Assembly: GCA_964351525.1 (NCBI GenBank)
Contig: CAYGOD010000001.1
Location: 78,534 to 142,533 of the forward strand
Origin: an uncultured Bdellovibrionales bacterium
Lineage (GTDB): Bacteria > Pseudomonadota > Alphaproteobacteria > Micavibrionales > GCA-2720935
Length of the DNA stretch: 64,000 bases
Reading direction: 5' to 3'
Positions 3,933 through 20,260 of this stretch are shown here, piece by piece. Below the pieces are notes generated by a model. That model had not been told where the DNA came from and ran no database searches. It was given only the letters and a program-made list of their open reading frames with translations. A program made the position numbers and the translations under genes. Each line of letters begins with the position of its first letter. The first letter of the stretch is position 1.

Positions 3933-6485
3933 CTAAGTCGGTTTAGATTCCCTTGTGCATTGTTCTGGTATGCCTTTAGGAATAGAGAAAAAGAATGTCG
4001 CACCTTTGCCTTCTTCTGATTCAACCCATATGCGTCCACCTCTGTTATTCAATATTTTAATACAAATGGCAAGACCAATGCCTGTTCCAGGATATGTCGC
4101 ACGACGATGTAAACGTTTAAAGGGTTCGAAAATCTTTTGGTGATATTCTTTTTTAATGCCAATACCGTTATCTTTGATCGAGAATATCCATGCTTCTGGG
4201 CTGTCTTTGACATCAATATCAATAATTGGTTTAACATCTGCTTCTTGGTACTTCAAAGCATTGCCAATAAAGTTTTGGAAGACACGCATCATACGGATAG
4301 CATTCCCTGGTATGATGGGCATTTTACCAATATTAATGACGGCTTTCTTGCGGTCAATTATTTCTTGTAAATTATCAATGGCAAGGCCGATCGTCGCGTT
4401 AATATCAACATCTTCTAAATGTTCTTCTTCATCGCCCGCGCGCGAATATTCCAATAGATCATCAACAAGAACTTTCATTTGATTTGCGCCCTTGACGCAA
4501 TATCCGAGGAACTCTTGTGCTTCGCCATCTAGGCTTGATAGGTGATTACGTTCAAGTAATTCCGCAAAGCTAACAACCGTGCGCAATGGTTCTTGCATAT
4601 CATGGGCGGCTACATAGGCAAAGCGCTCAAGCTCTGTGTTAGAACGCATCAGTTCTTCTTCAAACTTTTTACGCTCTGTTATATCCATTATAATTGCCAC
4701 ATAAACATCCTTGCCTTGAAAGAATGATTTTTGCAAATGAATTTCAACATCATAAAGGCTTTTATCTTTACGTTGATGTGCAGTTTCAAAAATTATTTTT
4801 TTCTCGGCACCATTATTGAGCGGAGCCACAATTTCTTGATAAGATTCTTTTGTATAATCAGGCTTGATATCAATCGGAGTCATTTTTAATAACTCTTCTT
4901 TGCTGTAGCCGATATTGTTCATTGCACCGCTATTAACATGGACAAAAAGATATGTTTTGGCATCAAAAATGAAAACCTCATTCAACGAGTCTTCGATGAT
5001 GCGCCCCATGTTTTTTAGATCTTCTGTTGCTTCTAAAAAATCCGTAAGATCACGTGACGTCCCAAGGATATAGGGCTCATCATCTAAGCCCTCAAAGCGT
5101 GTCTTTTTTGTTAATACGGTTCGTACCTTGCCATCGGGGAATGTGATGCGTTCCTCAACTTCCGAGAATCCCTTTTTAAAAGCGATCTTGTCTTGCTTTA
5201 AAAAGGCGTCCACTTCGTTTTTTGGGTATTCTTCTAATGTTGTATAGCCAATAATGTGGTCACGTTTTTCAGGCGGATATAGTTCTAGAAACGCATCATT
5301 GGCTTGAATAATTTTAAAGTCTTTGTCTTTAACAAAAACAAAATCAGGAATGGTCTTTAGAATGAGATCCTGAAAATTAAGCGCTTCTTCTATTTTTTTC
5401 TTATTTTTTTCTAATTCCGATGTTTGTTCTTTAACGGTTTTTTGAATAGCAGCCTTGCGACTTATGAGCTGAAAAACGATAACGGCGATGAAAAGGGTGA
5501 ACAAAAAACTAGACCAAAAAATAAGGCTCGAAATAGAAGAACTTTCTTTATTATAAAGCCAGGCCGTGTCAGGAATTAGATTGATTTGCCATTGACGACC
5601 AGAGACGGTTATAAAATCTTTATATTGGAAGTCTTTATCAGTGGCTCTATCCGCGTTTTTATTAATAATATTGATTATATTGTTGGGGTCTGTGACGTCA
5701 TCAATGCGAATATAGTTATCGTGTAATTCATTATATGTTTCGTTTAATGCATGGTTTATTACATCATAAATGTTTAAAGTCATTAGAACAAAACCGCTGA
5801 TATTATTTATTGTCTTTTTTACATCAGTATTTGTGGCGGACGTTATATTTTTGTACACAGGTGCGAAAAACAAAACATGCTTATTTTGCATGTCATCATT
5901 TAGAAGTGTTACGGGCGGCGTAGCAATTTCTTTCTTCAGCTCTGATGATTTTATCAAAGCGTCCAATTTTATTTTACTCGATCCTAGATCATAGCCAATT
6001 TTATCTCGGTTCCCTTTCATGGGTTCCACATAAAAAATAGGGTAATAAAAATCTCTATCACTTTGTACAGGGACAATATCATTATTATAATAAGTCTCTG
6101 TTATCTCAAAGTCTGAAATGCCTTGTTGCAAGGCTGTATTTTTTAACGTCTCAAGCTTGTCTTTTGGGACTTTCAGAACCCATTCTAAGGTTTTTATATC
6201 GGTGTGGTTTTCAAGGAGTGGGGCTGTAAATGATTTGAACTCTTCTCTATCAACATAGGTAGACGAATTGTAAAAGGCTTTTAATGAGCGTAGAACGTCG
6301 ATGTTTGTCTCTACTTCTTGACTGATTAAAAGAATGCGGGCTTCCGCATCTGCCAAAATAGCCTGTTTGATTTTACTCTGTTCAATATTTTGAAAAATAT
6401 GAGACAAAAATAGCGCAACACCAAGCCCCAAGAGGAGGATACAAATCGGAAGCGTTTTACTGTTGTTCAGAAGGTTTTTAATCAT
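3933..6485 (-). CDS. Hybrid-architecture sensor histidine kinase: CHASE - TM - PAS x2 - HisKA - HATPase_c
   Basis: N-terminal TM helix, then a periplasmic segment with a CHASE-like signature (YYPIFYVEPMKGNRDKIGYDLGS), then a second TM. Two PAS-like blocks follow. H-box YVAAHDMQEPLRTV. ATPase boxes GNALKY, DNGIGI and GTGIGLA. Confidence 0.85.
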   Translation of the reverse strand: MIKNLLNNSKTLPICILLLGLGVALFLSHIFQNIEQSKIKQAILADAEARILLISQEVETNIDVLRSLKAFYNSSTYVDREEFKSFTAPLLENHTDIKTLEWVLKVPKDKLETLKNTALQQGISDFEITETYYNNDIVPVQSDRDFYYPIFYVEPMKGNRDKIGYDLGSSKIKLDALIKSSELKKEIATPPVTLLNDDMQNKHVLFFAPVYKNITSATNTDVKKTINNISGFVLMTLNIYDVINHALNETYNELHDNYIRIDDVTDPNNIINIINKNADRATDKDFQYKDFITVSGRQWQINLIPDTAWLYNKESSSISSLIFWSSFLFTLFIAVIVFQLISRKAAIQKTVKEQTSELEKNKKKIEEALNFQDLILKTIPDFVFVKDKDFKIIQANDAFLELYPPEKRDHIIGYTTLEEYPKNEVDAFLKQDKIAFKKGFSEVEERITFPDGKVRTVLTKKTRFEGLDDEPYILGTSRDLTDFLEATEDLKNMGRIIEDSLNEVFIFDAKTYLFVHVNSGAMNNIGYSKEELLKMTPIDIKPDYTKESYQEIVAPLNNGAEKKIIFETAHQRKDKSLYDVEIHLQKSFFQGKDVYVAIIMDITERKKFEEELMRSNTELERFAYVAAHDMQEPLRTVVSFAELLERNHLSSLDGEAQEFLGYCVKGANQMKVLVDDLLEYSRAGDEEEHLEDVDINATIGLAIDNLQEIIDRKKAVINIGKMPIIPGNAIRMMRVFQNFIGNALKYQEADVKPIIDIDVKDSPEAWIFSIKDNGIGIKKEYHQKIFEPFKRLHRRATYPGTGIGLAICIKILNNRGGRIWVESEEGKGATFFFSIPKGIPEQCTRESKPT

Positions 6486-6671
6486 GTTATTTCTTGGAAT
6501 AATTTATTGAAGGATATGATAATCATCGTTGCTAGGAAAGTCTGCGCAATATCAACTTATTATGACTGATATTTGTTAAGATTTCACTATAATATATGCA
6601 TCATTTATGATGATGTTTTTTTTGGTGATAATGCTGTTGCATTAAAGTGCATATATGCTAAATTCGATTTT

Positions 6672-7067
6672 ATGTTGAAACGTCACCTAGATATCTACAC
6701 AAATGCCATCCATGCGATGGTATTATTGGCATGGTTTTTTAGTGCGCTTATTCCGGCAGGCTATATGCCGTCTTTTAAAACAGACAATCAAAGTTTTGCT
6801 AGTTTTGACATTGTTATCTGTACGGCTTATGGCTTACAGACAATTACGTCGGATGCCCTTGATCGCTCTGATCAGGATCATAAAGAACAGACAAAAGACA
6901 CACGCTGTGATTTTGTAAAAACAGCATCACAGACCGCTTCTGTGACCCTCTTTAGTCATGATGTAATCGCCTATGGTTATAACTTTGATCAAATCACCTT
7001 AAGTCAATTCATCCCCACTATTTCCAAAGATTGGTCTGCTCAAGGGCCACCCTCTAAGGGCGTTTAA
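6672..7067 (+). CDS. DUF2946-like small membrane protein
   Basis: N-terminal helix ending in LIPAGYMP, followed by IVICTAYG, as remembered for DUF2946. The ATG at 6672 is preferred over the TTG-extended track ORF at 6573. Confidence 0.4.
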   Translation: MLKRHLDIYTNAIHAMVLLAWFFSALIPAGYMPSFKTDNQSFASFDIVICTAYGLQTITSDALDRSDQDHKEQTKDTRCDFVKTASQTASVTLFSHDVIAYGYNFDQITLSQFIPTISKDWSAQGPPSKGV

Positions 7068-7128
7068 AGCGCCTCTATATTAATTTACATTTTTACATTT
7101 TTAATATTTTTTCTAAGAGGGAAAAATC

Positions 7129-8184
7129 ATGCTTACATTTTTAACAAAAAAACTACAAAAAACCGCCATCATGACATCATGTTTGGTGGCTCTGCCGATT
7201 GCTACGGCAAATTACGCTATGGCTGATGGATATTCGTCTGCCGATACACACGCCCCGATTGGTGTGATGGGTGATCATGCCCATAAAACGGGGGAATTCA
7301 TGTTCTCTTATCGTTACATGAAAATGGAGATGAACGATAATTATAGTGGGGACAGTAAGGTCACAAATGCTCAAGTGCTGAATGACTTTATGGTTACCCC
7401 AACGGATATGACCATGGAGATGCATATGTTCGGCGGTATGTATGGTGTTAGTGATGATCTAACCGTTATGGCTATGGTGCCGTACATCGATAAATCAATG
7501 AATCATTTAACCCGTATGGGCGGCACTTTTCGTACCACGGCCAAGGGCTTCGGCGATGTTAAGTTAGGCGGTCTTTATACGCTTTATCAAGACGGTGCGC
7601 ATAACCATGAGGGGCGTTCGGAAACCAAAACGTTACTCCTTAATATGGGCCTTAGTCTTCCAACCGGCAGTATTGACGAACGCGGTACAACGCCAGCGGG
7701 CACAGATCAAAGATTGCCCTATGCCATGCAATTAGGTTCGGGAACGGTTGATCCGACAATCGGGCTAACGTATACAGAGGCCAAGGCCGATTTCTCGTGG
7801 GGCGCACAGGCTTTAACAACGGTGCGTTTTGGTAAAAATGACGAGGGATATCGTTTGGGTAATGAGTATCAAATGACGGGGTGGCTTGCGAAACCTCTCA
7901 GTGATGCTTTTAGTATCTCTGCACGTTTAGATGGTAAGGCTTGGAAAGATATCAAGGGTGCAGACGGCCAGTTAAACCAAGCGGTTATTGCAACGGCACG
8001 TCCTGATTTACGCGGGGGATATCGTGTCAATGCGAACTTGGGCGTTAATTATCTTCACCTTGACGGTCCAATGAAGGGGCATAGATTGGCGGCTGAATTT
8101 GGCATGCCCGTTTATCAAAATCTTGATGGTCCGCAGTTAGGCACAGATTACAACTTCACGCTGGGTTGGCAATATGCATTTTAA
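7129..8184 (+). CDS. Outer-membrane beta-barrel protein (MetA-pathway/'transporter' family-like)
   Basis: Signal peptide (…ATANYAMA), alternating beta-strand pattern, and a C-terminal aromatic residue (…GWQYAF). The HAPIGVMGDHAHKTGEFMFSYRYM motif is recalled from this family. Confidence 0.5.
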   Translation: MLTFLTKKLQKTAIMTSCLVALPIATANYAMADGYSSADTHAPIGVMGDHAHKTGEFMFSYRYMKMEMNDNYSGDSKVTNAQVLNDFMVTPTDMTMEMHMFGGMYGVSDDLTVMAMVPYIDKSMNHLTRMGGTFRTTAKGFGDVKLGGLYTLYQDGAHNHEGRSETKTLLLNMGLSLPTGSIDERGTTPAGTDQRLPYAMQLGSGTVDPTIGLTYTEAKADFSWGAQALTTVRFGKNDEGYRLGNEYQMTGWLAKPLSDAFSISARLDGKAWKDIKGADGQLNQAVIATARPDLRGGYRVNANLGVNYLHLDGPMKGHRLAAEFGMPVYQNLDGPQLGTDYNFTLGWQYAF

Positions 8185-8208
8185 TCCGATGAATAAGACG
8201 TAACACAA

Positions 8209-8238
8209 AGCCCCTATTGTCACGATAGGGGCTTTTTA
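8209..8238 (+). terminator. Rho-independent terminator after the OM barrel gene
   Basis: AGCCCCTAT-tgtcacg-ATAGGGGCT followed by TTTTTATTT. Confidence 0.75.
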
Positions 8239-8295
8239 TTTGATAAATTCTATTGCGGCGCGTTCATCAAACGTCTATAAAATAATTGATTATGC

Positions 8296-8383
8296 GGGGA
8301 GGTGGCTGAGTGGTTTAAGGCGCACGCCTGGAAAGCGTGTGGGGTGCAAGCCCTCGAGAGTTCGAATCTCTTCCTCTCCGCCA
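8296..8383 (+). tRNA. tRNA-Ser (anticodon GGA), long variable arm, encoded CCA
   Basis: Acceptor stem GGGGAGG/CCTCTCC (one G-U pair). D-arm GCTGAGTGGTTTAAGGC. Anticodon stem-loop CACGC-CTGGAAA-GCGTG. There is a long variable arm, a T-arm GAGAGTTCGAATCTCTT, and a terminal GCCA. Confidence 0.9.
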
Positions 8384-8421
8384 TTATCTTTTATCCATTA
8401 AAATCAATGGTTTGACAGTGC

Positions 8422-8444
8422 AAAAAGCCCGCTAAAACGGGGCT
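8422..8444 (-). terminator. Weak intrinsic terminator for the 8559-9518 gene
   Basis: On the minus strand, AGCCCC-g-TTTTAG-c-GGGCT is followed by TTTTT. The stem is only 5-6 bp. Confidence 0.35.
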
Positions 8445-8558
8445 TTCGGGGGGGGATTCGAACCTCGAATATTAGGCTAATCGTCGATAGTTGCCCTTTT
8501 CTGAGAGAATAGGCTTTTTCTCTCTGTTTGCGCATTTCGGCAGTGTCATTGAATAGCT

Positions 8559-9518
8559 TTATTCCCAATGAGTAATACTCATTTTATTTGGAACTGCAAC
8601 ATGAAATGATCTCGTAGCGCCGTCGCCAGCATATCCTAGTTGCCAGCCATCAAACTTGCCATCTTCACTTTTTGACCATTTTTTTTGTATAGAGCCATAA
8701 ATACCTGAATTTGAATCCTTGATCATCTCCTCATCCATCTCAATATTCCATTTAGTGCTTTTAAATGGGTGATCTTCATCAAATGTATAGAGTGGAAGAC
8801 GAGTTAGTTTAATTGCTGTATCTCTAAAGATCTTGGTACATGGTATAATATCGTTGTTTTGGTTTACTGCATCTATGCTTTCAAGATAATTTGACAGTTC
8901 TATTGAAGATAGTGATATATATGTCAAAATTTCCCATAGAATTGATGTAATAGAAATTATCTTTTTACCATTACTATGAAGTATATGATGCGGTGCAGCT
9001 TGCCCGTTTTTATAACCTTCAACAAAAAAGCCTAATAAGAAGATGGTGGCCCCATCATGATGAAAATCTGTTTCAAATAGTCTTATGCGCCCATGATTAT
9101 GTTTTATTGTGTTGGTGTAGTTTGATATTTCATCTCTTAATGGTTTAAGGTTCCTTTTTAAAGAACGCAAACTTTTATCTTTTGATGCAGAGAAATTATT
9201 TTTAAAAAATGTTTTGGCCACAGTTTCTATATCATCATTATGCTCTGCTGCTGCGTATAAAGAAAGCTCCAAATAGTCAATAATCTCATCTTTTATAGCT
9301 TGATCTTTTGGCGTATCAATCCAGTGCTGTTCTAACTTATCTGCACATTTTTTTACCTTATCACAAATACGAGATAATGAGAGGTTATACACTCCGAGAG
9401 GATGACGCAGATCTCTTATTTCATGGTAAGATGCCATGGCTTTTAAGCTAGCTAAAGCCTTAATTGCTGGCAAACAATTTCCAGTATCCTCAGGATCAAT
9501 TTTTATTTCGGGTTTCAT
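8559..9518 (-). CDS. Hypothetical protein (no recognisable domain), first gene of the accessory region
   Basis: A 319-aa ORF with a terminator downstream. No motif recognised. Confidence 0.5.
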   Translation of the reverse strand: MKPEIKIDPEDTGNCLPAIKALASLKAMASYHEIRDLRHPLGVYNLSLSRICDKVKKCADKLEQHWIDTPKDQAIKDEIIDYLELSLYAAAEHNDDIETVAKTFFKNNFSASKDKSLRSLKRNLKPLRDEISNYTNTIKHNHGRIRLFETDFHHDGATIFLLGFFVEGYKNGQAAPHHILHSNGKKIISITSILWEILTYISLSSIELSNYLESIDAVNQNNDIIPCTKIFRDTAIKLTRLPLYTFDEDHPFKSTKWNIEMDEEMIKDSNSGIYGSIQKKWSKSEDGKFDGWQLGYAGDGATRSFHVAVPNKMSITHWE

Positions 9519-9571
9519 TATTTAAGGTTCTTTTAAAATTCATATAATATTTAAGAGTAACCTGCCTCGTA

Positions 9572-11170
9572 TCAGAAACCAAAGGTTTCTTTTTGTTCAG
9601 ACCATGAAAGCGGTATGTTGCCCAACATCAAGCGGGCAAGGATAAGGGTATCAGGCTGACGTCCTTCTAAAATGGCGGTCTGAATTTCTGGCGCAAGGAA
9701 AATAAGGTTATAAATTTGGCGTACATAGCCTCGGCGCATATTTTCAGAATCTGCAACTTCTTTAAATGAATTCACTTCACCACTTTTAAGCATGCGATTC
9801 CACTTATGGGCGCGAATAAGCGCTTTGATTAGCGCAGGATCTTTTTTGGTTGTCGTAGGCTTTAGGTCTTTGCCGTTTTCATCAAGTATAAGTTTTTTAC
9901 CGCCATACTTTCTAAATCCTGCAGGCAGATCATATTCTTGTAATGGGCCCTGAGCTGTTTTGATAACTATGCGGATTTTATCTGTAAAAATAACAACTTT
10001 TTCAATCAGCCCCTTTAAAACGGCACGTTTATCCAAATAGGTTTTGTCGTTCCAATTCTTCAATAATATTTTCTGCTCCTCATCCTCTATGTTTTTGTTC
10101 AGCTGATCCAATACAACGGCTTCGAGATCTTTTTGCGGGACGCGTGGGACGTCTGCTTTTTGCGCTCCTTCTTTAATAGCAACTTGGCTGATGTAATAAT
10201 GGTGATAGCACCGTGTTCCATCTTTGAGCTTTTTACCACTATAGCCTGGTGAATAAGCTCGACCTTCAACATCAAAGACCATTCCCTTTAATAGAATGTG
10301 TGATCTATGATGATTACTCTCTTTTTTAGTGTTGTTTTTTGAAAGCTTGGTTTGAACAGCATCCCACAATTCTTGATCGATGATAGCCTCATGCAAGCCA
10401 TCATATAATGTGCCCTTGTGATGTGTTTTACCGAGCAAAAGCGGATTATTAAGAAGCTTTGATAAATAGCCGCGATCAAAATAGCTTCCACCACGTTTAT
10501 GTCCTTTTTCAGTTGTCCAACGTTTATTGATAATGCCTTGCTCGCGCAAATGATCAATGAACGTAATGATAGATTTAGCCTTTAAATAACCGTCAAATAT
10601 ATAGCGTACTTGTTTGGCTTCGGGTTCGTTAATAACGAGGTGGCGATTTTTAATGTCATAGCCCAGCGGCGGCGTGCCGCCCATCCACATACCCTTCTTT
10701 TTACTAGCCTCGATTTTATCGCGGATACGTTCGCTTGTGACTTCCCGTTCAAACTGAGCAAAAGACAAAAGCATATTGAGCGTCAATCGCCCCATCGAAT
10801 CTTTAGTGTTAAAACTCTGCGTGACAGACACAAAGGTCACGCCATGTTCGTCAAACAGTTCAACCAGTTTGGCAAAATCATGTAAGGACCGAGATAGCCG
10901 ATCAACCTTATAAACGACTACTACGTCAATCAATTTTTTCTTAATATCGGCGAGCAATGCTTTCAGAGCTGGACGACCCATATTGCCACCGGAAAAGCCG
11001 CCGTCATTATACTGCTTTTTAACGACACTCCAACCTTCTGATTTTTGGCTTTTGATATATGCCTCGCCAGATTCACGCTGTGCATCGAGTGAATTAAAAT
11101 CCTGCTCCATGCCATTTTCAGATGACTTGCGGGCATAGATGGCACAGCGTATATTTTTATCATTCTTCAT
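9572..11170 (-). CDS. Large serine recombinase (resolvase/invertase N-domain + recombinase domain + zinc-ribbon region)
   Basis: Contains CAIYARKSS (catalytic Ser), LDAQRE, DGGFSG, VVVYKVDRLSRSL and SFAQFERE. The ATG at 11170 (MKNDKN…) is preferred over the GTG at 11182, because it gives the same box-to-ATG spacing as the two related genes. Confidence 0.9.
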   Translation of the reverse strand: MKNDKNIRCAIYARKSSENGMEQDFNSLDAQRESGEAYIKSQKSEGWSVVKKQYNDGGFSGGNMGRPALKALLADIKKKLIDVVVVYKVDRLSRSLHDFAKLVELFDEHGVTFVSVTQSFNTKDSMGRLTLNMLLSFAQFEREVTSERIRDKIEASKKKGMWMGGTPPLGYDIKNRHLVINEPEAKQVRYIFDGYLKAKSIITFIDHLREQGIINKRWTTEKGHKRGGSYFDRGYLSKLLNNPLLLGKTHHKGTLYDGLHEAIIDQELWDAVQTKLSKNNTKKESNHHRSHILLKGMVFDVEGRAYSPGYSGKKLKDGTRCYHHYYISQVAIKEGAQKADVPRVPQKDLEAVVLDQLNKNIEDEEQKILLKNWNDKTYLDKRAVLKGLIEKVVIFTDKIRIVIKTAQGPLQEYDLPAGFRKYGGKKLILDENGKDLKPTTTKKDPALIKALIRAHKWNRMLKSGEVNSFKEVADSENMRRGYVRQIYNLIFLAPEIQTAILEGRQPDTLILARLMLGNIPLSWSEQKETFGF

Positions 11171-11180
11171 AACACCATAC

Positions 11181-11207
11181 ACGCTTCCTTTAGCGCGGAA
11201 GTCCAGT
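11181..11207 (-). promoter_or_regulatory. 27-nt conserved leader box, copy A (ACGCTT-N12-AAGTCCAGT on + strand)
   Basis: The same flanks, 27-nt length and 10-nt distance to the ATG occur at 12340-12366 and 26734-26760. Confidence 0.5.
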
Positions 11208-11220
11208 TATATTAACGAGC

Positions 11221-11895
11221 ATGGAACAAAAGAATAAAAAGCAAAAAACAGCACAAGATCTATATGATGGCCTAGTTATCATTGCCGAGAATATTTGTGC
11301 TGAAATTAAATGGGCATACGTCAATTATGAGATTCTTGACGCATGCAATCAAAAAAAGATTACCGATAAGTTTACAAACACATATTCAGGTAATGTATGG
11401 GCTGTTCTACGTAGAAGCTTGCTAAATGAAACTCTTTTAGCTTTGTCTAAAGTTATTATAGATAAAAAGAATAAACCGTCTTCTTTCCACGCCTTGCATG
11501 AGCTTTTGAAGAAAGAAGAAGTAATAGAGCTGGTAAAGTTAAATTACACGCAAGCTGAAGATGCGTTTGATGATCGTCTTCAAGACTTGTTGGAAGGCTT
11601 ATCTTCTTTAGATGAATTTTTGAAAAATCATGATGCTTTCAAAAGCTTAGCCGCCCACCGCAATAACTATCTGGTACACAGGTCACAGAAAGTTTCTAAA
11701 TCTGTCAGAAACTTTCAATGGGGAGATGAAAAAACATTAATCAGTATTGTTGCTGATATAATGCACCCTATGGAACTTATGATTTTGAATGGTGGAAACA
11801 TTTCTAATTCAACTAGGTCTGTTTACAGAGCATATGCTAAAAACTTCTGGGATAGCATCGAACCAGATGATGCAAGGTTTAAATATACAGACTAA
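11221..11895 (+). CDS. Putative HEPN-domain protein, AbiU2-like (abortive-infection family)
   Basis: All-alpha-looking 224-aa protein with an R-x5-H motif (AAH-R147-NNYLV-H153-RS) in the C-terminal half, as in HEPN Rx4-6H nucleases. The general layout is remembered from AbiU2. No search was run. Confidence 0.4.
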   Translation: MEQKNKKQKTAQDLYDGLVIIAENICAEIKWAYVNYEILDACNQKKITDKFTNTYSGNVWAVLRRSLLNETLLALSKVIIDKKNKPSSFHALHELLKKEEVIELVKLNYTQAEDAFDDRLQDLLEGLSSLDEFLKNHDAFKSLAAHRNNYLVHRSQKVSKSVRNFQWGDEKTLISIVADIMHPMELMILNGGNISNSTRSVYRAYAKNFWDSIEPDDARFKYTD

Positions 11896-12329
11896 TTTCT
11901 CTTATCTTTCCTTAAGCCAAAAAATAAGGGCCCCGACCAATGAGATCCTGTGATTTCTTTAGCAATGGTTGTAAGGCTTGTATATTCACAACCGTTATAC
12001 TCCAGCCTTTTCTTATCATGGACATAGACGATATAGGTCTGTCCATTCCATTCCCGCTTTAGGATCGTTTTTGATGGGAGTTCGTGTTTCTTGATCGGCG
12101 CTTTAACTTCACCGCTGATAAGTCGATTGAGCTTTGTACGCGTACGCGCAGGCAATCCGCCACACGCTTTTTCCTGCACATGCCACGCGATATGGCGCAT
12201 GATCAAATCACGGCTAGATGGCTTTTCTTTATTGCCAAAACAATCAGCCCAAAGCGTGTGCAACGTTTTCTTGTCAGTTGTTTTTAGCATATTTAAGTCA
12301 GATAATATATGGCCCTGCATCTTCTTCAT
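11892..12329 (-). CDS. DUF2924 domain protein (recombinase-associated)
   Basis: Contains LWADCFG…SRDLIMRHIAWHVQEKACGGL…LKREWNGQTY…YTSLTTIAKEITGSHWSGPLFFGLR, which matches the remembered DUF2924 consensus well. Confidence 0.8.
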   Translation of the reverse strand: MKKMQGHILSDLNMLKTTDKKTLHTLWADCFGNKEKPSSRDLIMRHIAWHVQEKACGGLPARTRTKLNRLISGEVKAPIKKHELPSKTILKREWNGQTYIVYVHDKKRLEYNGCEYTSLTTIAKEITGSHWSGPLFFGLRKDKRN

Positions 12330-12339
12330 GAAGACAGTA

Positions 12340-12366
12340 ACGCTTCCTTAGAGCACGAAGTCCAGT
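12340..12366 (-). promoter_or_regulatory. 27-nt conserved leader box, copy B
   Basis: Sequence ACGCTT-CCTTAGAGCACG-AAGTCCAGT, lying 10 nt from the DUF2924 ATG. Confidence 0.5.
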
Positions 12367-12396
12367 CAATTAGTCACCTAAATTAAATGATTAAGA

Positions 12397-13200
12397 TTAG
12401 TTAATTTTCACTGCAAACGGTGCAAAGACCTGCTTTCCATCAATTTGAACCTGGGCGAATAGCTTTAAATACCCCGCTTGTTCCGGTTCAATATGAAAAC
12501 GCAAGGTTGGGCCACCACGTTCGGTGTCTTCAGTTGGTTCTGCGCCCATAGGGTGAATATGCGCGATAGTTTCATAATCTTCATAAAAGCCAACCATGTG
12601 CGCAAAAGCCCCCATGACAGGCTCAAGGACGTTTACGGCTTGCCCATCTTTGGAAATACTCACAGTGCTCATAACAGATTCTCCAGCCTTTAAGTCACCC
12701 TCCAATTCAAGCTTAAAGTCATACCCTTGTGATGAAGACTCGAAGCTCACTGTTTTATCAATTGGCTCTCTGCATTCTGCCGCGCCTTTTAAATCAACAG
12801 GTACATATTGTTGGTCTGATCCTTTAAGTTGAACATCCACCCAAATACGATAAGAGCAAGTAGTTTGTGGTGTAAAATTAAAAGCATATTGCCCAGTTGA
12901 TGTTTGAGTTGGATGTTCATGGTGATAATCATTCAATTCAGGGTCAATGATTAATAGGTGAACGGGTTTTGTATGAACAACCTTAAACTGCGACACATCC
13001 ACTGGCTGTGCTTGTTTATCTTGAACAAACAAAACAAGCGCATTTTCCTCTCCAGCTTTCAATTCAGCTGGCGTGATAGGCGTGATAATAAGTTGAGCCT
13101 CTGAATGGTTATGTCCGTCATGATCGTGTCCAGGTCCTGCCCATGTGGGCTGAATAAACGCGACTAGTATAAAAATTGTAGTGAAAATATGCTTTAACAT
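12397..13200 (-). CDS. Secreted His-rich putative metal-binding protein
   Basis: Signal peptide followed by AGPGHDHDGHNH. Internal HHEHP and AHIHPMG motifs. It is the last gene of the czc-type operon and overlaps the czcD-like gene by 7 nt. Confidence 0.5.
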   Translation of the reverse strand: MLKHIFTTIFILVAFIQPTWAGPGHDHDGHNHSEAQLIITPITPAELKAGEENALVLFVQDKQAQPVDVSQFKVVHTKPVHLLIIDPELNDYHHEHPTQTSTGQYAFNFTPQTTCSYRIWVDVQLKGSDQQYVPVDLKGAAECREPIDKTVSFESSSQGYDFKLELEGDLKAGESVMSTVSISKDGQAVNVLEPVMGAFAHMVGFYEDYETIAHIHPMGAEPTEDTERGGPTLRFHIEPEQAGYLKLFAQVQIDGKQVFAPFAVKIN

Positions 13201-14114
13201 TGTTGAGTTTCCTTCCTTTGGTTATTCATTTCAAAACATTTTTGATGTTCAAATTCCAATGTTGAGTGGTCGATGGAAAAACGATCTTTGAGTATTTGTT
13301 TCAGCTCTCGCTTGACCTCATCCATTCGGCCTTGATCGTCTATCACGACATGCGCTTCTAGAGCGTTGCGATTTTCATCCAGTTGCCAGATATGAACATG
13401 GTGCACATTCTGAACGCCTGCTTGTGTTTCCATGCTTGAAATTACATCTTCAATCGCTATGCCTTTCGGCGTTCCTTCCATAAGCAAGTGAATGACTTTC
13501 GGAATCTCGTGCAGTCCGTGATATAAAACATATCCGGCAATCAACAACGTCATTGCAGCATCCGTCCAAACCCAACCATAAAGTAAAATCAGTGTTCCGG
13601 CGATAATTACGCCAACCGAGGCAAGCGCATCCGTCAAGTTATGCAGAAATGCCGCCCGCATATTCATGCTATTTTTGGATTGACTATAGGTCAAAAAGGC
13701 CGTGAACAAATCAACTACTAAAGCTATTCCAGCAACAATAACAATCGTCCATCCGGCAATGGGTTCTGGTGTAATAAAACGCATAATTGCTTCATAGCAA
13801 AGATAGAGTCCGATAATGATCAAAGTGATCAGGTTAATAAAGGCCGCTATAGTTTCGGCGCGTTTATAACCAAATGTTTTGAATTGATCCGGCGGTTTGC
13901 GGCCAATACGAATTGCAATCAAAGCAATAAGCAGAGAAGCCGCATCGCTAAAATTATGTAGGGCATCGGCAATCAACGATAAACTGCCAGAAATTATGCC
14001 GCCGATCACTTGCGCCAGTGTGAGCAGTATGTTCGCACCCACCGCCCACCATAGGCATTTTTCGCCTATTTCAGATGGATCTCCATGGTGATGATGGTGC
14101 TGTCCGTGTCCCAT
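13194..14114 (-). CDS. czcD: Cation diffusion facilitator (CDF) metal efflux transporter
   Basis: N-terminal His tract (GHGQHHHHHG) and six TM helices. CDF signature around LIADALHNFSDA and HNLTDALASVG. A C-terminal cytoplasmic domain is present. Confidence 0.85.
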   Translation of the reverse strand: MGHGQHHHHHGDPSEIGEKCLWWAVGANILLTLAQVIGGIISGSLSLIADALHNFSDAASLLIALIAIRIGRKPPDQFKTFGYKRAETIAAFINLITLIIIGLYLCYEAIMRFITPEPIAGWTIVIVAGIALVVDLFTAFLTYSQSKNSMNMRAAFLHNLTDALASVGVIIAGTLILLYGWVWTDAAMTLLIAGYVLYHGLHEIPKVIHLLMEGTPKGIAIEDVISSMETQAGVQNVHHVHIWQLDENRNALEAHVVIDDQGRMDEVKRELKQILKDRFSIDHSTLEFEHQKCFEMNNQRKETQQC

Positions 14115-14117
14115 AAT

Positions 14118-14846
14118 TTACCCTATGTATTGTGATAGTATCCAGAAAGACATTGCTATCATCATTAAATTTTCAGTTAAGGATACAAAACCAAGTGGCA
14201 CGTTGCTATTCCCACCAACACATGCACATTTTAGTTCGCGTTTATCAACATAAACCGCTTTAAAAACAGAAATTGCGCCGACCGTTCCGATAAACAGGGC
14301 TGCGGGTGCGGAAATGATAGTGAGAAATCCCGAAATCATCGCCACGCCCGCGAGTGTTTCAATGAAGGGATAAACGTAGCCATACTTGACCCACCTTTGA
14401 GCCAGAAGATCGTAATTCAAAAATTGTAAGCTAAACGCTTCTAAGTCTCTTAACTTTTGGATACCCAATACGCACATGCTAATAGCAATAAAAAGCTCAA
14501 TCATTCTAATGATATTCAGCTCACCAATGGCCCATGCCGTTGAGAGGGCCATAAGGAAAGTCGTGGCGAAAATTGCGATAATGGGTTTGTAGGTCGTGCC
14601 TTCCTGTTTTTTTCCGAAAAATTCTTTCAGATCATCATATCCACCGATACGTTCTCCATCAATGAAAGTTTGCGGCGTTGTCTTTACATCATGCTTTTGT
14701 TTAAACACATCTGTTTCTTCGCGGCTGGTCAGATGATTATCTTCAACCTCGTATCCTTGAGCTTTTAAAAGATCGAGTGATTTTAAACCATACGGGCATA
14801 TATGCTTATCCATGACCATGCGGTAGAGTTCGGCTTTTTTTGTCAT
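14118..14846 (-). CDS. Glutaredoxin-like domain fused to MauE/DoxX-type membrane domain
   Basis: The N-terminus (CPYGLK…TPQTFIDGERIGGYDDL) is glutaredoxin-like. The C-terminus has four or more TM helices and a CAC motif. The ATG at 14846 has a good SD (AAGGAGAT); the track extension to 14924 would overlap czcA. Confidence 0.6.
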   Translation of the reverse strand: MTKKAELYRMVMDKHICPYGLKSLDLLKAQGYEVEDNHLTSREETDVFKQKHDVKTTPQTFIDGERIGGYDDLKEFFGKKQEGTTYKPIIAIFATTFLMALSTAWAIGELNIIRMIELFIAISMCVLGIQKLRDLEAFSLQFLNYDLLAQRWVKYGYVYPFIETLAGVAMISGFLTIISAPAALFIGTVGAISVFKAVYVDKRELKCACVGGNSNVPLGFVSLTENLMMIAMSFWILSQYIG

Positions 14847-14865
14847 TTTAAAAAATCTCCTTTTT

Positions 14866-17800
14866 TTATAAAACGCGCTGCTTTGTTTGCTGTTCCAAAT
14901 AACTTTGTGAAGCCTTCTCGCCAAATCTCCAGAACACCAATGGTGTAACGATGAGGTTTAGAAGCGTAGAACTGAATAGACCTGAGAAGATCACGATCGC
15001 AACAGGGCTAAGAATTTCTTTTCCTGTTTCACCAGCAGCCATTACGAGTGGTGTAAGGGCAAGCAGTGCCGTTAATGCAGTCATAAGCACTGGCACAAGC
15101 CGTTCTTGTGTTCCACGTTTGAGCATTTTAAGATCAAAGCTCTCACCCTCATGTTTCATGAGGTGGAGATAATGCGAGATCATCATAATGCCGTTGCGTG
15201 ATGCAATCCCTGTGAGCGTTATAAATCCAACCATTGTAGCGATTGAAAACACGCCGCCTGTCAGATAGATACCAATCACAGCACCAATGAAGGATAGCGG
15301 AATAGCAAGCATAACTTGTAGGCTAAGGTTGATTGAACGGAAATGTGTATAGAGAGCAAGGAACATTCCCAAAAGCGAGAAAATACTCAAGATTAAGATG
15401 TTACGTTGTGCTGTTGCTTGGCTTTCAAATTGCCCGCCATAGCTAATGTAATATCCCGATGGCAGTTCCAGCTTTTCATCGAGTATCCTTTGAATATCTT
15501 CAACGACACTTACCACATCACGACCTTGCGTATTGGCTTGTACAACCATACGGCGGCTAACACCTTCGCGGTTAATCAAGTTTGGCCCTTTGGCTTCCTC
15601 AATGTCTGCAAAAAGTTGTAAGGGAACAACATTACCGCGCAGCGTTTCAAACGGGATTTTGCCAATAGCTTCTTTATCCTCCCGAGCCTCATCATTAAGG
15701 CGCAAAACAACATCAAACAAACGATTGCCATCAATGATATTGGTGACGGTTTGTCCCTGCATCGCAAGCTCCGCATGTTGCGCGGCCTCACCAATCATAA
15801 CGCCATGTTGCTTGGCTTTATCACGGTCAAAATTCACATGAATTTGCGGTATTAGAAGCTGTTGCTCCATTTGCAAGTCAGCAATACCTTCAACGCCCTG
15901 AACCAAGGTCTGTACTTCGGCGGCCTTAGTACGCAATATATTGAGATCATCACCAAAGATTTTAATGGCAATTTGTGCGCGAACACCTGAGGTAATAAAA
16001 TCAATACGGTGAGATATAGGTTGACCAATATTGATAATCACGCCGGGAATTGAGCCGAGCTTTTCACGAATATCCGAAACGATATCTTCTTTATGTCGAT
16101 CCGATGATTTTAATGTTACTTCTAACTCTGTCGAGTTTACACCAAGCGCATGCTCATCTTCTTCGGCGCGACCCGTTCTTCGTCCAGTATCCGCAACTTC
16201 GGGAATTTCATGCATAAGGTTTTCTGCCAAAATACCGAGGCGATTACTTTCCTCCAACGATGTACCCGGCGGCGATGTTACATTGATTGTAAAACTACCC
16301 TCATTAAATTCAGGCAAGAATTCGCGCCCAAATGTTGGCACAAGCATTAACGCGCCTAAAAACAAAGCCGTTACAATTGCTAAAACAGACTTAGGGCGAG
16401 GCAATGCAAAATTTAAAACCCAAGCATGTCCAGATTTTAACTTTCGGACCATCCATCCATCTTTCTCGTCCTCCATACGCTTCATTTTGGGCAGAAGATA
16501 CGAGCATAAAGCGGGCGTTACAGTAAGTGATACAAGCATTGAGGCCACAATTGCGGTGATGTAAGCCACCCCAAGAGGGATAAACACTTTTCCTTCAAGA
16601 CCGCTCATCGCAAAAAGTGGTAAGAATACCATGAACACAATTATAGTTGAAAAGACAATCGAGTTCCTGATCTCCTTCGATGCTTTGAAAACAACACTTA
16701 AAGCGGGCTCTTTGTCTTTTTTATGCCTGTTTTCTCGCAATCGCCTGAATACATTTTCAACATCAACAATTGCATCATCGACGAGTTCACCAATTGCCAC
16801 AGCAAGACCGCCAAGCGTCATGGTGTTGATACTCATCCCGAACCATTTGAAGATGATCAAGGTCACAACAATAGATAAAGGAATAGCAACAAGCGTAATT
16901 GCGGTTGTCCTGAAATTTAGCAAAAACAAAAACAATATAATCGCTACCAAAATAGATCCATCACGCAGAGCTTCGATGATGTTGTGGATAGCGTTTTTAA
17001 TGAAGTCCGCCTGTTTAAATATCTCAGGATTGAGGACTACATCTTCAGGTAGTGAATTCTTGATAGATATTAGTTCTTTTTCAATTCGGTCAGTTAAGCC
17101 AATCGTATCTGTACCCGGTTGTTTTGAGACGGCAAGTAACACACCGGGCTTACCATTAACAGACGCGTCACCACGTTTAGCGATTGGTCCAGCTAATTTC
17201 ACCTCGGCTACGTCTGCAAGAGTTAGGGCAGGCATATCAGGTGAAACCTCTTTCGCAATGACGGTTTTTTTTAAATCATCAAGAGATCGAATAAGCCCTA
17301 AATTACGAACGGAATGTTCTTTATAGGCATCCAGTAAAAAACCACCTGTGGTGTTTACATTTGCATTTTCCAATGCCTCACGCACCTGATGTAAAGTAAT
17401 GCCGTGATTAAGCATTTTTTCGGGATCAACTAGCACGTGATATTGTTTTAAATCACCACCAATCGCCGTAATTTTTGATACACCACTAATGCCTAAGAGC
17501 CTTTGTTTTACATCCCAATCAGCAATCGTTCGTAAATCGAGAGGTGGTATATCAGGGTTTTCAGATGTGATGCCAATAAACATCACTTCTCCCATAATTG
17601 ATGATACTGGCCCCATGATGGACTGAACATCTTCGGGAAGGCTCCCTGCGACTTGGTTCAATTTTTCGGCAACAATTTGTCGAGCGAGATAAATATCCAT
17701 ATCCCAGTCAAATTCAACATAGACAATCGAAAACCCAATCGATGATGACGAACGAACCGTTGTTACACCACTCGCACCATTCATGGCAGCCTCTACAGGA

Positions 17801-18000
17801 AAAGTTACAAGCGTTTCGACTTCTTCGGGGGCAAGCCCATGCGCTTCACTAATAATTGTAACTGTGGGGCGGTTTAAATCAGGAAACACGTCCACTGGAA
17901 GTGTGCGCACAACTTGAAAGCCGTAGACCGTCATGAGTGCGGCGATAGTTATCACCAAAAGGCGATAATTCAGGGCAAAACGTATAATTGTATCAAACAT
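14866..18000 (-). CDS. czcA: Heavy-metal efflux RND pump, CzcA/CusA family
   Basis: A 1044-aa protein with 12-TM RND architecture. Typical HME-RND blocks are present (AIGELVDDAIVDVEN, GVSRRMVVQAN…). Confidence 0.9.
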   Translation of the reverse strand: MFDTIIRFALNYRLLVITIAALMTVYGFQVVRTLPVDVFPDLNRPTVTIISEAHGLAPEEVETLVTFPVEAAMNGASGVTTVRSSSSIGFSIVYVEFDWDMDIYLARQIVAEKLNQVAGSLPEDVQSIMGPVSSIMGEVMFIGITSENPDIPPLDLRTIADWDVKQRLLGISGVSKITAIGGDLKQYHVLVDPEKMLNHGITLHQVREALENANVNTTGGFLLDAYKEHSVRNLGLIRSLDDLKKTVIAKEVSPDMPALTLADVAEVKLAGPIAKRGDASVNGKPGVLLAVSKQPGTDTIGLTDRIEKELISIKNSLPEDVVLNPEIFKQADFIKNAIHNIIEALRDGSILVAIILFLFLLNFRTTAITLVAIPLSIVVTLIIFKWFGMSINTMTLGGLAVAIGELVDDAIVDVENVFRRLRENRHKKDKEPALSVVFKASKEIRNSIVFSTIIVFMVFLPLFAMSGLEGKVFIPLGVAYITAIVASMLVSLTVTPALCSYLLPKMKRMEDEKDGWMVRKLKSGHAWVLNFALPRPKSVLAIVTALFLGALMLVPTFGREFLPEFNEGSFTINVTSPPGTSLEESNRLGILAENLMHEIPEVADTGRRTGRAEEDEHALGVNSTELEVTLKSSDRHKEDIVSDIREKLGSIPGVIINIGQPISHRIDFITSGVRAQIAIKIFGDDLNILRTKAAEVQTLVQGVEGIADLQMEQQLLIPQIHVNFDRDKAKQHGVMIGEAAQHAELAMQGQTVTNIIDGNRLFDVVLRLNDEAREDKEAIGKIPFETLRGNVVPLQLFADIEEAKGPNLINREGVSRRMVVQANTQGRDVVSVVEDIQRILDEKLELPSGYYISYGGQFESQATAQRNILILSIFSLLGMFLALYTHFRSINLSLQVMLAIPLSFIGAVIGIYLTGGVFSIATMVGFITLTGIASRNGIMMISHYLHLMKHEGESFDLKMLKRGTQERLVPVLMTALTALLALTPLVMAAGETGKEILSPVAIVIFSGLFSSTLLNLIVTPLVFWRFGEKASQSYLEQQTKQRVL

Positions 18001-18014
18001 ATCTAATTCCTCCC

Positions 18015-19031
18015 TTAATGCTTATGATCGCTGTTATCGTCATGGTCATGTCCATCATCATGTGCGTGACCTTCCTGCTCATCATGTGTGTCTTCTTCAT
18101 CAATGTGTTCCTGAACTCCTCCAACAGACATATATTGAAGCTGATAATTTCCATTAGTCACAACACGTTCATTTGGGAATAGACCGCTTTTAATTTCAGT
18201 GTGATGACCTGTCTTTACCCCAACTGTCACCTCGCGCTTTTCAACCCCTTGGCCTTTCATAACATATACGAAGTAAGAGCCAAGCTCACCTAAAACAGAT
18301 CGCTTTGGAACCGCCATAACTGGCGCATCCGACCCTGTGAAAATTTCCATTGTTCCTTGTAATCCGGGTTGAATATCGCGCTTTGGGGTATCAATCATGG
18401 CAAAGATTGAAAATGTACGGCTTTCAGGGTCAATAACGCGGTTAATACGCTGTATTTTACCCTCAATATGACGATCAGGTGCAATATCAAGATGCAGTTT
18501 GGCTTTCTGCCCTACCTTCAAGATTTGAATGTCTGGTGTCTCATAAGCAACACCGCGCACTAGCATTTGGGAGGCATCACCGATTTCAAGAATATCGCCA
18601 CCAGCATCAATTATATCACCTACGCCTGCGTGCAGATTAAGAACAAATCCATCAATAGGTGAGGACAAAGCAACATTGCTACTTCCAACACTAAGGGGTT
18701 CCAGCGTGGCAAGACGTTGCCCTTTTTTCACTTCTTGTCCGACCTGAACAGCAATATCAAGAATCTTACCGCCAAACCTTGGAGAGATGGATGCTTGTTT
18801 CTCAGGCAATAATTCAGTGAAGGCTAACATATCAACAGCTTGTGCAATCGATAAAAACTCAACTTTTTCCGATTGAATATCCAGATTACTCATTTGTTGA
18901 TTGGTTAAATTAAAATGGGTTGCAGGGCCTGCGCCGCCAGCAAAGGCACTTTCCCCATGGTCGTGTCCAGGACCTGCATAAGCTGGGGCAATAATTGCAA
19001 TAAAAGCTATTAATATTAAAATTTTATTCAT
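18015..19031 (-). CDS. czcB: RND periplasmic adaptor (membrane fusion protein), His-rich termini
   Basis: Signal peptide followed by AGPGHDHGES. Contains lipoyl/beta-barrel MFP blocks and a C-terminal HDEQEGHAHDDGHDHDDNSDHKH tail. Confidence 0.85.
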   Translation of the reverse strand: MNKILILIAFIAIIAPAYAGPGHDHGESAFAGGAGPATHFNLTNQQMSNLDIQSEKVEFLSIAQAVDMLAFTELLPEKQASISPRFGGKILDIAVQVGQEVKKGQRLATLEPLSVGSSNVALSSPIDGFVLNLHAGVGDIIDAGGDILEIGDASQMLVRGVAYETPDIQILKVGQKAKLHLDIAPDRHIEGKIQRINRVIDPESRTFSIFAMIDTPKRDIQPGLQGTMEIFTGSDAPVMAVPKRSVLGELGSYFVYVMKGQGVEKREVTVGVKTGHHTEIKSGLFPNERVVTNGNYQLQYMSVGGVQEHIDEEDTHDEQEGHAHDDGHDHDDNSDHKH

Positions 19032-19036
19032 GATTT

Positions 19037-20260
19037 TTATTCCTTTGTGTTTGCAAGACTTTGACCAACTAAGCTTTCAAGCTCAATTCGCGCCTCGATA
19101 GAATTTAGGTATACTTGTAAGGCTTCGCTTTGCACATCCGTAATCCTTTCACGCATTTGAAAAAGATCGAGGATTGAAGCCTGTCCATTTTCAAATTTCT
19201 TATCAGTAATGGATTGCACATCATCCCAAGATGGAACGATTTTATTGCGATATGTAGAGGCCGAGATTTGCGTGGCCTTGGCTTGATCATAAGATGCTGC
19301 CAAAACATTCACAAAGTTTTGCTCATTCAGGGCATTAAGATTACTTTGTGCCAAACGGCGTTCTGCATTAGCTCTAGAAAGTTCGGCGTTATTTCGATCC
19401 CATATCGGAATGGCTATATTTACACCGAATAAAATTGCGGTGCTGTTTTCGTCAAGATCGCGCTCTATAACTGCACGAGGCGCAAACTCTGGAAAACCTG
19501 CATCTTGCCGCGCCACATTGTAGCGTCTTTCTGCAAGGGCTTTGCGGCTTTCCAAAAGACTTCGGATTGATCCCTCATTACCCGCGAGAGATGTTAAGGC
19601 CGTTAGATCAGGAATTTCAGGGCTTTTAGGCCGCTTAACATCAAAGCTCGTTTGATCCATGCCAGCCATCCGTAAAAGATTTGTCGCACCGTTTGTCTTT
19701 CTGGAGCGAATAACACGAAGTTGCTCTTCCAAACGGAGCGCTTCGGCTTTAAAGATTTTGGCATCTGCCGCATCAACACGTCCATCCTTTGCTGCACGCT
19801 CAATCAGCTTTTGCTTCTTACGTGCATAGCTAGCGTTTTCAGATAAAAGCTTTTCTTGTTCCTGCAAAGCCCAATAAGAAGAATAGCCACGCGTAATAGA
19901 GTGAATAAGTTCCAACATCTGAGCTTTCTGCTCAATACTAGCTGTTCTGCGTAGTGCGTTGGCGTATGAACCGCGCGACCCAAAATTGGAAAGCCTCATT
20001 GGCTGCTCTATCTCAATACCTACAGAACGCGAAGTACCGTCTTCAATCGCTGTAATATTGATTTCTGCTGTAGGGTTACTAAGCGTTTCAATTTCAAACG
20101 CCTCGGCATCAGCGTCTGCAAAATCATTTAAGATACGTGCAGTTTCTGGGCTGTTTTGAAGAGCTTGTTTAATAACTGTTTCTAGTGAAAGCGTTCCTGC
20201 TTTTGCTGCTTGAGTAGGCGCAAACAAAGCAACCAGCAAAATTATATATAAATATTTCAT
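19037..20260 (-). CDS. czcC: TolC-family outer membrane factor
   Basis: Signal peptide MKYLYIILLVALFAPTQAAKA and two coiled-coil/beta repeats typical of OMF proteins. The ATG at 20260 is preferred over the track start at 20332. Confidence 0.8.
   Translation of the reverse strand: MKYLYIILLVALFAPTQAAKAGTLSLETVIKQALQNSPETARILNDFADADAEAFEIETLSNPTAEINITAIEDGTSRSVGIEIEQPMRLSNFGSRGSYANALRRTASIEQKAQMLELIHSITRGYSSYWALQEQEKLLSENASYARKKQKLIERAAKDGRVDAADAKIFKAEALRLEEQLRVIRSRKTNGATNLLRMAGMDQTSFDVKRPKSPEIPDLTALTSLAGNEGSIRSLLESRKALAERRYNVARQDAGFPEFAPRAVIERDLDENSTAILFGVNIAIPIWDRNNAELSRANAERRLAQSNLNALNEQNFVNVLAASYDQAKATQISASTYRNKIVPSWDDVQSITDKKFENGQASILDLFQMRERITDVQSEALQVYLNSIEARIELESLVGQSLANTKE

Follow-up and report, generated by a model that had tools for sequence, protein, structure and literature searches.

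What is an antisense, toxin-like gene doing between a recombinase gene and the accessory gene to which that recombinase is usually coupled? The question arises at positions 11,221 to 11,895 of a 64,000-nucleotide (nt) stretch of contig CAYGOD010000001.1 from an uncultured Bdellovibrionales bacterium (this whole stretch is called the window below), where an AbiU2-family HEPN gene is wedged between the gene for a large serine recombinase (LSR) and its DUF2924 partner. We consider it rather probable that 11171-11895 represents a compact, horizontally mobile single-gene cassette of HEPN toxin or defence type which, together with one copy of a bipartite sequence motif (box A), lies within the integration module of an LSR element. 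The local features are as follows.

9572 to 11170, minus strand: LSR1, large serine recombinase gene (Pfam Resolvase and Recombinase; 532 aa from the ATG at 11170)
11171 to 11220, no strand: divergent intergenic region of 50 bp, from the LSR ATG to the AbiU2 ATG
11221 to 11895, plus strand: AbiU2-family HEPN gene (open reading frame with ATG start, 224 aa; PF18734), the candidate single-gene cassette
11892 to 11895, no strand: overlap of the AbiU2 and DUF2924 stops, 4 nt reading CTAA (from the open reading frame coordinates)
11892 to 12329, minus strand: DUF2924 gene, RAMA-like DNA-binding (Pfam PF11149, E 1.8e-34; weak PF18755 match on the orthologue in contig L096, for which see below)

A preliminary description of the locus had placed a 224-aa opposite-strand gene between DUF2924 and LSR, beginning 50 bp from the LSR ATG, sharing that 50 bp with box A, and overlapping the DUF2924 stop by 4 nt; the coordinates bear out each of these points. 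The LSR and DUF2924 genes are separated by 721 nt which hold the antisense gene; box A (11181-11204) lies within 11171-11220; and the CTAA is made up of TAA (11893-11895), where AbiU2 stops, and CTA (11892-11894 as read on the plus strand), where DUF2924 stops. The extent of the divergent region follows from the LSR start, which we place at the ATG at 11170 (MKNDKNIRCAIY...), consistent with the rest of the family, and not at the GTG at 11182 chosen by the open reading frame finder, which falls within a conserved noncoding box. Besides AbiU2, the insert holds no second reading frame of at least 50 aa and no antitoxin, the sole other frame of that length (54 aa, 11789-11953) being out of frame with the AbiU2 3′ end that it overlaps. 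The AbiU2 gene is 34.8% GC, as against 41-43% for the flanking genes. DUF2924 itself has been linked to the RAMA domain (PMC11342252).

How unusual is this arrangement? Our baseline is a set of 80 loci whose LSRs are 40-47% identical, all in GTDB species representatives and most of them alphaproteobacterial; they were found by a genome-collection scan with an LSR alignment and then searched with hidden Markov models (HMMs) over six-frame open reading frames. In 76 of the 80, a same-strand DUF2924 frame ends between -22 and +127 nt from the LSR start (median about -4), just as the preliminary description had supposed in calling the two genes normally adjacent and co-oriented; two of the four remaining loci are cut by a contig end. 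No AbiU2 gene was detected by HMM at any of the 80. The same abutting pair is found in Acidithiobacillus phage AcaML1 (Gp4/Gp3) and in Wolbachia phage WO (gp30/gp31); a DUF2924 pattern search of genome contigs gave no match. Because 76 of 80 modules abut and none holds AbiU2, the wedge is a real exception to a strong rule, and the window departs from the canonical module of co-oriented genes that abut or overlap. It was also suspected to be an undescribed one, and our literature search found no report linking AbiU2 with either DUF2924 or an LSR.

That the AbiU2 gene is an insert is seen from a sister element that lacks it. An exact-cluster look-up for LSR and DUF2924 relatives at least 90% identical to those of the window led to three Tara Oceans (TARA) metagenome contigs, L093, L094, and L095, which carry a ParB_N-methylase gene, DUF5681, DUF2924, LSR, and a 319-aa open reading frame, all without AbiU2; like the baseline loci, these provide the comparison with insert-free loci that the preliminary description had called for. 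The LSR of these three contigs is 91% identical to LSR1, and its gene overlaps DUF2924 as TAATG; in L093 the two genes lie at 6001-7599 and 5561-6001 and thus share 1 nt. Two blastn blocks, each of 85% nucleotide identity, join the two elements: window 12377-11896 corresponds to L093 5514-5994, and window 11158-8375 to L093 6014-8794. What lies between them in the window has no equivalent in L093.

11159 to 11895, no strand: stretch without L093 counterpart, comprising new LSR 5′ codons, box A, and AbiU2 (blastn and global alignment)

In its place L093 holds only some 19-25 nt (...AAATAATGGAGCAAAAGAAAAACT...). The difference of about 740 nt is thus made up of AbiU2, the 50-bp intergenic region (L093 has none), and six or seven new LSR codons. 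The breakpoints are sharp in a global alignment, and since identity to L093 is steady right up to them, nothing points to a long donor tract. These comparisons support the reading of the AbiU2 stretch as a discrete insert within the recombination module.

Nor is the window the only example. The AbiU2 clade to which the gene belongs is very small: a word search of 5.8 billion proteins returned 6 clade proteins, a further word-based protein search only two more, both distant, and an exhaustive profile search of 1.84 billion representatives 98 matches at E<=1e-3, of which only 9 reached E<=1e-30. No AbiU2 was found in viral contigs, nor by tblastn in plasmids and phages, and a metagenome scan added one stand-alone locus. 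Within this small clade i) the AbiU2 protein P0002, 67% identical to that of the window, occurs on nine metagenome contigs (L001-L006) in the order LSR(-)/AbiU2(+)/DUF2924(-), with DUF5681 and the ParB_N-methylase beyond DUF2924; ii) P0007, only 42% identical, shows the same order in L096 and L097; iii) the 4-nt stop overlap, CTAA in the window, reads TTAA in both L002 and L096; iv) box A lies between LSR and AbiU2 in all three lineages; and v) P0006 (41% identical; L012 16-2317) lies 8 nt downstream of, and co-directional with, an LSR which is only about 22% identical to the DUF2924-type LSRs, and is a second, independent AbiU2-LSR linkage. We conclude that the LSR(-)/AbiU2(+)/DUF2924(-) wedge is an old and recurrent architecture of three lineages, not a one-off.

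The wedge LSRs of the three lineages are 41-53% identical to one another, and for each there is an LSR outside any wedge that is at least as closely related (L093, 91% identical to the window; L084, 56% identical to L002), so that wedge-bearing and wedge-less LSRs are interspersed. In L011 an intact AbiU2 (P0003, 81% identical to P0002 of L002) has downstream of it a DUF2924 remnant, namely the 3′ end with a frameshift (1112-1340), and the LSR is missing; the contig reads as a decayed wedge of which only AbiU2 has been left intact. Base composition sets the gene apart as well: AbiU2 is 32-38% GC in surroundings of 38-54% GC (window, L002, L096, L007, L011, and L012), and this low value persists between lineages only about 40% identical in protein, which suggests that the gene either has come repeatedly from a low-GC pool or is selected to be AT-rich. 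Its patchy distribution, its foreign composition, and its persistence where neighbors have been lost together argue that AbiU2 is mobile cargo selected for its own sake.

Is the protein really a HEPN protein, as its R147-x5-H153 motif had suggested at the outset? The only Pfam family matched is PF18734, HEPN_AbiU2, and the match is full length (E 1.3e-13; 51.3 bits, the gathering cutoff being 26.8), with residues 21-209 aligned on profile positions 7-193 of 193, and PF18734 is matched by 30 of 30 aligned relatives.

11659 to 11679, plus strand: predicted HEPN Rx4-6H catalytic motif, R147-N-N-Y-L-V-H153 (R147 codon 11659-11661, H153 codon 11677-11679; both residues invariant in 30 members)

R147, H153, and W210 are the only invariant residues of the 30-sequence family alignment, which extends down to 17-22% identity, and the R147/H153 dyad is likewise invariant in a five-sequence alignment of the clade. 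HEPN domains are defined by an Rx4-6H motif with a polar residue after the arginine, located at the end of helix 3 or the start of the following loop, in a four-helix up-down core with an insert between helices 2 and 3 (PMC3710099); the window protein has Rx5H, with N148 as one of the polar residues (N, D, or H) expected there. An AlphaFold2 model built from the 30-sequence alignment is all-alpha and confident (predicted local distance difference test [pLDDT] 90.5, predicted template modeling score [pTM] 0.86), with long helices at 11-42, 55-79, 113-151, and 169-188 and short helices within 89-108; R147 ends helix 138-151 and H153 opens the loop toward helix 169-188, and this modeled placement is consistent with that described for HEPN domains. 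All AbiU2 relatives examined are full length, in at least 10 contexts, and the orthologues of L002 and L011 differ with a ratio of nonsynonymous to synonymous change (dN/dS) of 0.12 (dN 0.096, dS 0.77), indicating purifying selection. PADLOC reports a weak match of residues 81-163 to a HEPN protein model, Cas13-ApeA (E 1.3e-4); NCBIfam and PHROGs have no match for the protein. Sequence evidence thus supports AbiU2-family HEPN membership, the protein being a new member of a known family, and by its motif it is predicted to be a metal-independent RNase with R147 and H153 as catalytic residues.

If the cassette separated a coupled pair of genes, how is the downstream LSR expressed? A possible answer is the bipartite box, of which the window has three copies.

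11181 to 11204, minus strand: box A, GGACTT-N12-AAGCGT (flanks CTGGACTT...AAGCGTGTATGG), separated by 10 nt from the LSR ATG (regular expression, 16-box alignment)
12340 to 12363, minus strand: box B, the ancestral copy, separated by 10 nt from the DUF2924 ATG
26734 to 26757, minus strand: box C, separated by 10 nt from the ATG of a second LSR (25209-26723, minus strand)

The regular expression GGAC[TA]T-N12-[AG]AGC[GA]T, run over 942 kb of collected sequence, gave 43 matches, nearly all on the LSR-sense strand and most of them upstream of DUF2924 operons or LSR genes, in many genera and in many Alphaproteobacteria. In 16 aligned boxes the consensus is CTGGACTT-N12-(A/G)AGC(G/A)T-NNNTG; the CTGGACTT and AGC(G/A)T blocks are invariant and their spacing is fixed, with the spacer free to vary. 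The distance from box to ATG ranges from 10 to more than 25 nt, and a Shine-Dalgarno sequence accompanies the long leaders but is absent at 10 nt. L093 has box B only (5527-5550), and the A copies of the different lineages are more alike than A and B within one element; these comparisons assign box A to the insert.

What the box might be is best approached through what it does not resemble. As an RNA hairpin or Shine-Dalgarno-sequestering leader it was rejected: CTTCC...GGAAG can pair in the window copies, but there was no covariation in sets of 16 to about 35 copies and no conserved pairing of the N12 spacer across the 16, and of 8000-13000 searched against Rfam only a tRNA-Ser passes, with no covariance-model match for the box. 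As an attP or other recombination site it was rejected because three intact copies sit inside the integrated element, the junction with the sister element being found instead at 8375, in the tRNA-Ser. As a sigma-54 or sigma-70 promoter it does not fit, judged by eye. The absence of an Rfam match and of covariation, together with fixed spacing around a variable spacer, argues for promoter or operator architecture and not a structured RNA, and we infer that the box is promoter- or operator-like, a candidate for an undescribed signal of this family of integration modules. By eye it also bears some resemblance to a pattern of the extracytoplasmic function (ECF) sigma factor type, GGAC-N17-CGT.

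The cassette would also bring its own control sequences into a confined space.

11208 to 11213, plus strand: candidate -10-like hexamer of AbiU2, TATATT, 7 nt before the AbiU2 ATG and abutting the upstream half of box A

The hexamer at this position is TATATT in L002 and GATAAT in L096. Since it adjoins box A, the control regions of LSR and AbiU2 would occupy the same DNA. At the opposite end of the gene, neither strand of 11221-12400 showed a terminator-like hairpin in a simple scan, and across the three wedge loci terminator predictions did not exceed those expected from shuffled sequence; with shared stops and no terminator between them, the AbiU2 and DUF2924 transcripts must overlap at their 3′ ends, and the preliminary description was correct, at the level of sequence, in inferring a convergent overlap that leaves no room for terminators. 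This forced geometry, with overlap at one end and a shared 50 bp at the other, makes transcriptional interference between HEPN and recombination genes likely.

Taken together, these observations suggest the following scenario. A cassette would have inserted into the DUF2924-LSR operon of an LSR element adjoining tRNA-Ser, breaking the usual 1-nt translational coupling of the two genes; box A, brought by the cassette, would restore an independent start signal to LSR; AbiU2 would act alone, without a partner gene, as RNase cargo of toxin or defence type; and expression of the HEPN and recombination genes would interfere through the shared 50 bp and the colliding 3′ ends. The RNase activity and the toxic or anti-phage role are inferred from family and motif, and a defence role in particular is plausible but unproven.

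We wish to emphasize that a number of points weigh against this scenario. We know of no AbiU2-family protein that has been experimentally shown to be an RNase, a toxin, or a defence effector. Foldseek searches of PDB and BFVD retrieved no HEPN structure, only generic helical bundles (best E 0.22 and 0.07), so that it is the profile match and the motif which carry the HEPN assignment; a PDB sequence search likewise found no significant solved relative, with the integron HEPN structure 3jrt at E 0.18. PADLOC called neither an Abi nor any other defence system. Roughly one half of the clade (P0004, P0005, P0009, P0010, and L102) is flanked by housekeeping genes, without a visible LSR, and Pfam searches of the neighbors of stand-alone AbiU2 genes gave no mobile-element signal. 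Sigma-70 scans of the three wedge loci found no AbiU2 promoter above shuffled expectation, the TATATT hexamer being below the scan threshold, and a promoter role of the box is suggested only by its architecture. The cassette may have been gained in the window lineage or, equally, lost in that of L093. Finally, in Lactococcus lactis AbiUi alone gives weak resistance, and AbiUii (AbiU2) lowers it (PMC13064643). Thus the earlier suggestion of a defence cargo placed inside the recombination module stands as to the insert, by virtue of the empty site in L093, but is not demonstrated as to defence: it is AbiUi that confers resistance, PADLOC makes no Abi call, and there is no partner gene.

Several other explanations must be considered. 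A module-dependent role is argued against by the survival of AbiU2 without DUF2924 and LSR, and by the existence of a 91%-identical LSR without AbiU2.

The cassette could also be a switch and not passive cargo: with box A and the AbiU2 start signals on opposite strands of the shared 50 bp, and with the AbiU2 and DUF2924 transcripts colliding at their 3′ ends, the HEPN toxin and the recombination genes would be expressed mutually exclusively, the toxin being on at rest and off on mobilization, or the reverse. We think this unlikely. A stronger version, in which some 90 nt with box A and the 5′ coding ends of the two genes can physically invert, is hinted at by an inverted match: the first 18 nt of the L093 LSR (ATGGAGCAAAAGAAAAAC, MEQKKN; 6001-6018) match window 11221-11238 on the plus strand at 15 of 18 positions, and the matched sequence is the start of AbiU2 (ATGGAACAAAAGAATAAA, MEQKNK), in orientation opposite to LSR. 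This is the sole match to L093 6001-6018 with no more than 3 mismatches in the 64 kb (chance expectation 0.17), and its 83% identity is at the level of flank divergence, whereas the present LSR start of the window is only 57% identical to that of L093; if the 90 or so nt that hold box A and the two 5′ ends were inverted, an LSR start like that of L093 would result. LSR N-termini are otherwise highly variable across the family, and the match could be the footprint of a rearrangement, a hint of an invertible segment, or a coincidence between two lysine-rich, A-rich starts.

An addiction or stabilization module is another improbable reading: the AbiU2 toxin would be held in check by a cis antisense RNA, as in type I systems, penalizing loss or silencing of the element, and the antisense RNA would come from DUF2924 read-through over the 3′ half of AbiU2, from the LSR leader over its 5′ end, or from both. 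The lack of a protein antitoxin or second reading frame in the insert would be accounted for, as would the stop/stop overlap without terminator, which forces overlapping convergent transcripts in all three lineages and whose geometry is kept down to 42% protein identity. Against this, AbiU2 is intact without a DUF2924 or LSR antisense source in L011, L007, L009, L099, and L100; it is co-directional with its LSR in L012; and our scans detected no antisense promoter or stable antisense RNA element.

Might the HEPN protein, or its transcription, instead control recombination, setting the frequency of excision and integration by cleavage of LSR and DUF2924 mRNAs or by mutually exclusive use of the shared 50 bp? 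The clade is repeatedly tied to LSRs of two unrelated families (the three wedge lineages and P0006), the -10-like hexamer borders directly on box A, at its upstream half and on the other strand, and lactococcal AbiUii is a modulator and not an effector. We nevertheless regard control of recombination as quite unlikely, in view of the 91%-identical LSR in an element without AbiU2, the 76 of 80 related modules without it, the persistence of AbiU2 after module loss in L011 and in housekeeping contexts, and a base composition that marks it as foreign cargo.

Much doubt also attaches to the suggestion that AbiU2 is a neutral hitchhiker, a selfish or accidental insertion without a role, whose shared geometry reflects one old event inherited vertically. 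Gene order and stop overlap could indeed be frozen, since any indel would damage a gene end, and the clade is tiny (the six proteins and nine representatives given above); but a dN/dS of 0.12 with an invariant catalytic dyad, retention of AbiU2 after decay of its neighbors, conservation of the compensating box A, and divergences of LSR and AbiU2 that are incongruent with simple vertical descent all speak against it. That AbiU2 is a spurious open frame, antisense in AT-rich spacer DNA, has only its low GC content in its favor and is refuted by a Pfam match above the gathering score, by full-length orthologues in at least 10 contexts, by dN/dS, and by the confident AlphaFold2 model.

How then does the mobile-cassette reading, which we prefer, relate to systems already described? 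The prototype of PF18734 is AbiUii/AbiU2 of L. lactis plasmid pND001, classed as HEPN by Anantharaman et al. 2013 (PMC3710099). The window protein is like other family members in its full-length match, its invariant R-x5-H with polar residue, its modeled all-alpha structure, the family size of some 200-250 aa, and its occurrence, frequent in the family, as a stand-alone gene on mobile DNA; it is unlike most of them in being only about 20% identical and in forming a very small subclade, and unlike the contexts listed for PF18734 in having neither an AbiU1 partner nor a Sel1-repeat or restriction-modification operon neighbor, but a serine-recombinase module. The AbiU abortive-infection system (Dai et al. 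2001) includes AbiUi (AbiU1), for which there is no candidate here, the insert having no second gene and its neighbors being LSR and DUF2924. With HEPN-MNT and other HEPN toxin-antitoxin pairs it shares a predicted HEPN RNase toxin and the Rx4-6H motif, but the HEPN family is a different one and there is no MNT or other adjacent partner, since neither flanking gene (LSR, DUF2924) is an MNT antitoxin.

As in other DUF2924-LSR modules (AcaML1, WO, and 76 GTDB loci), the gene families, their relative order, and the upstream box (where an intergenic region exists) are all the same; unlike the canonical pairs on one strand, those of the window are split by an antisense gene, and LSR has a box of its own. 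Integrase-proximal regions, for example the P2 and P4 hotspots, are landing pads for defence and toxin genes, and such cargo hotspots lie beside or between functional modules. The cassette resembles integrase-proximal defence or "moron" cargo in being a low-GC single gene of conflict type, patchy among relatives, with candidate expression signals of its own; it differs from the known hotspots in lying within an operon, between a recombinase and its coupled accessory gene, accompanied by a duplicated control box. The features that set the architecture apart are the antisense position of the cargo within a coupled recombinase operon, the duplication of a control box, the recurrence of the layout in three deep lineages, and the natural control provided by the empty site.

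A mobile element would thus appear to have accepted cargo at a seemingly forbidden position, inside its own recombination operon, with a duplicate control box repairing the damage. With window and L093 as a natural plus/minus pair, one could ask if AbiU2-type HEPN proteins serve toxicity, defence, or the regulation of mobility; any phenotype found for the AbiU2 family would be new, and the family name misleads as to defence, given that AbiUii lowers resistance in the lactococcal system. The widespread, undescribed box is a candidate for the promoter or operator by which many proteobacterial prophages and islands would control their integration and excision.

The remaining features concern the host element.

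8296 to 8383, plus strand: tRNA-Ser(GGA); L093 homology ends at 8375, at a shared CCGCCATTAT
8559 to 9518, minus strand: 319-aa open reading frame without family match, downstream of LSR1 (conserved in L093 at 7653-8612)

Homology with L093 stops 9 nt inside the 3′ end of tRNA-Ser(GGA), beyond which L093 differs, and 8375 is probably an end of the element or the attachment junction of the LSR element at the tRNA gene. The 319-aa frame, lying between LSR and this end, may be an unrecognized part of the integration module.

Between DUF5681 (20776-21231) and DUF2924 the window carries metal-efflux genes (12397-20332, minus strand) encoding YtkA-like, CDF Cation_efflux, and MauE-like proteins, an RND ACR_tran pump, an HlyD-type adaptor, and OEP; since DUF5681 and DUF2924 adjoin in L093, these genes constitute a second cargo insertion in the element. 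The second LSR (25209-26723, minus strand) is 504 aa long, about 52% identical to LSR1, and has box C directly upstream with no DUF2924; beyond it is a divergent lipoprotein-like open reading frame (26868-27263). This second LSR may lie at the opposite end of the element, or belong to a tandem one.

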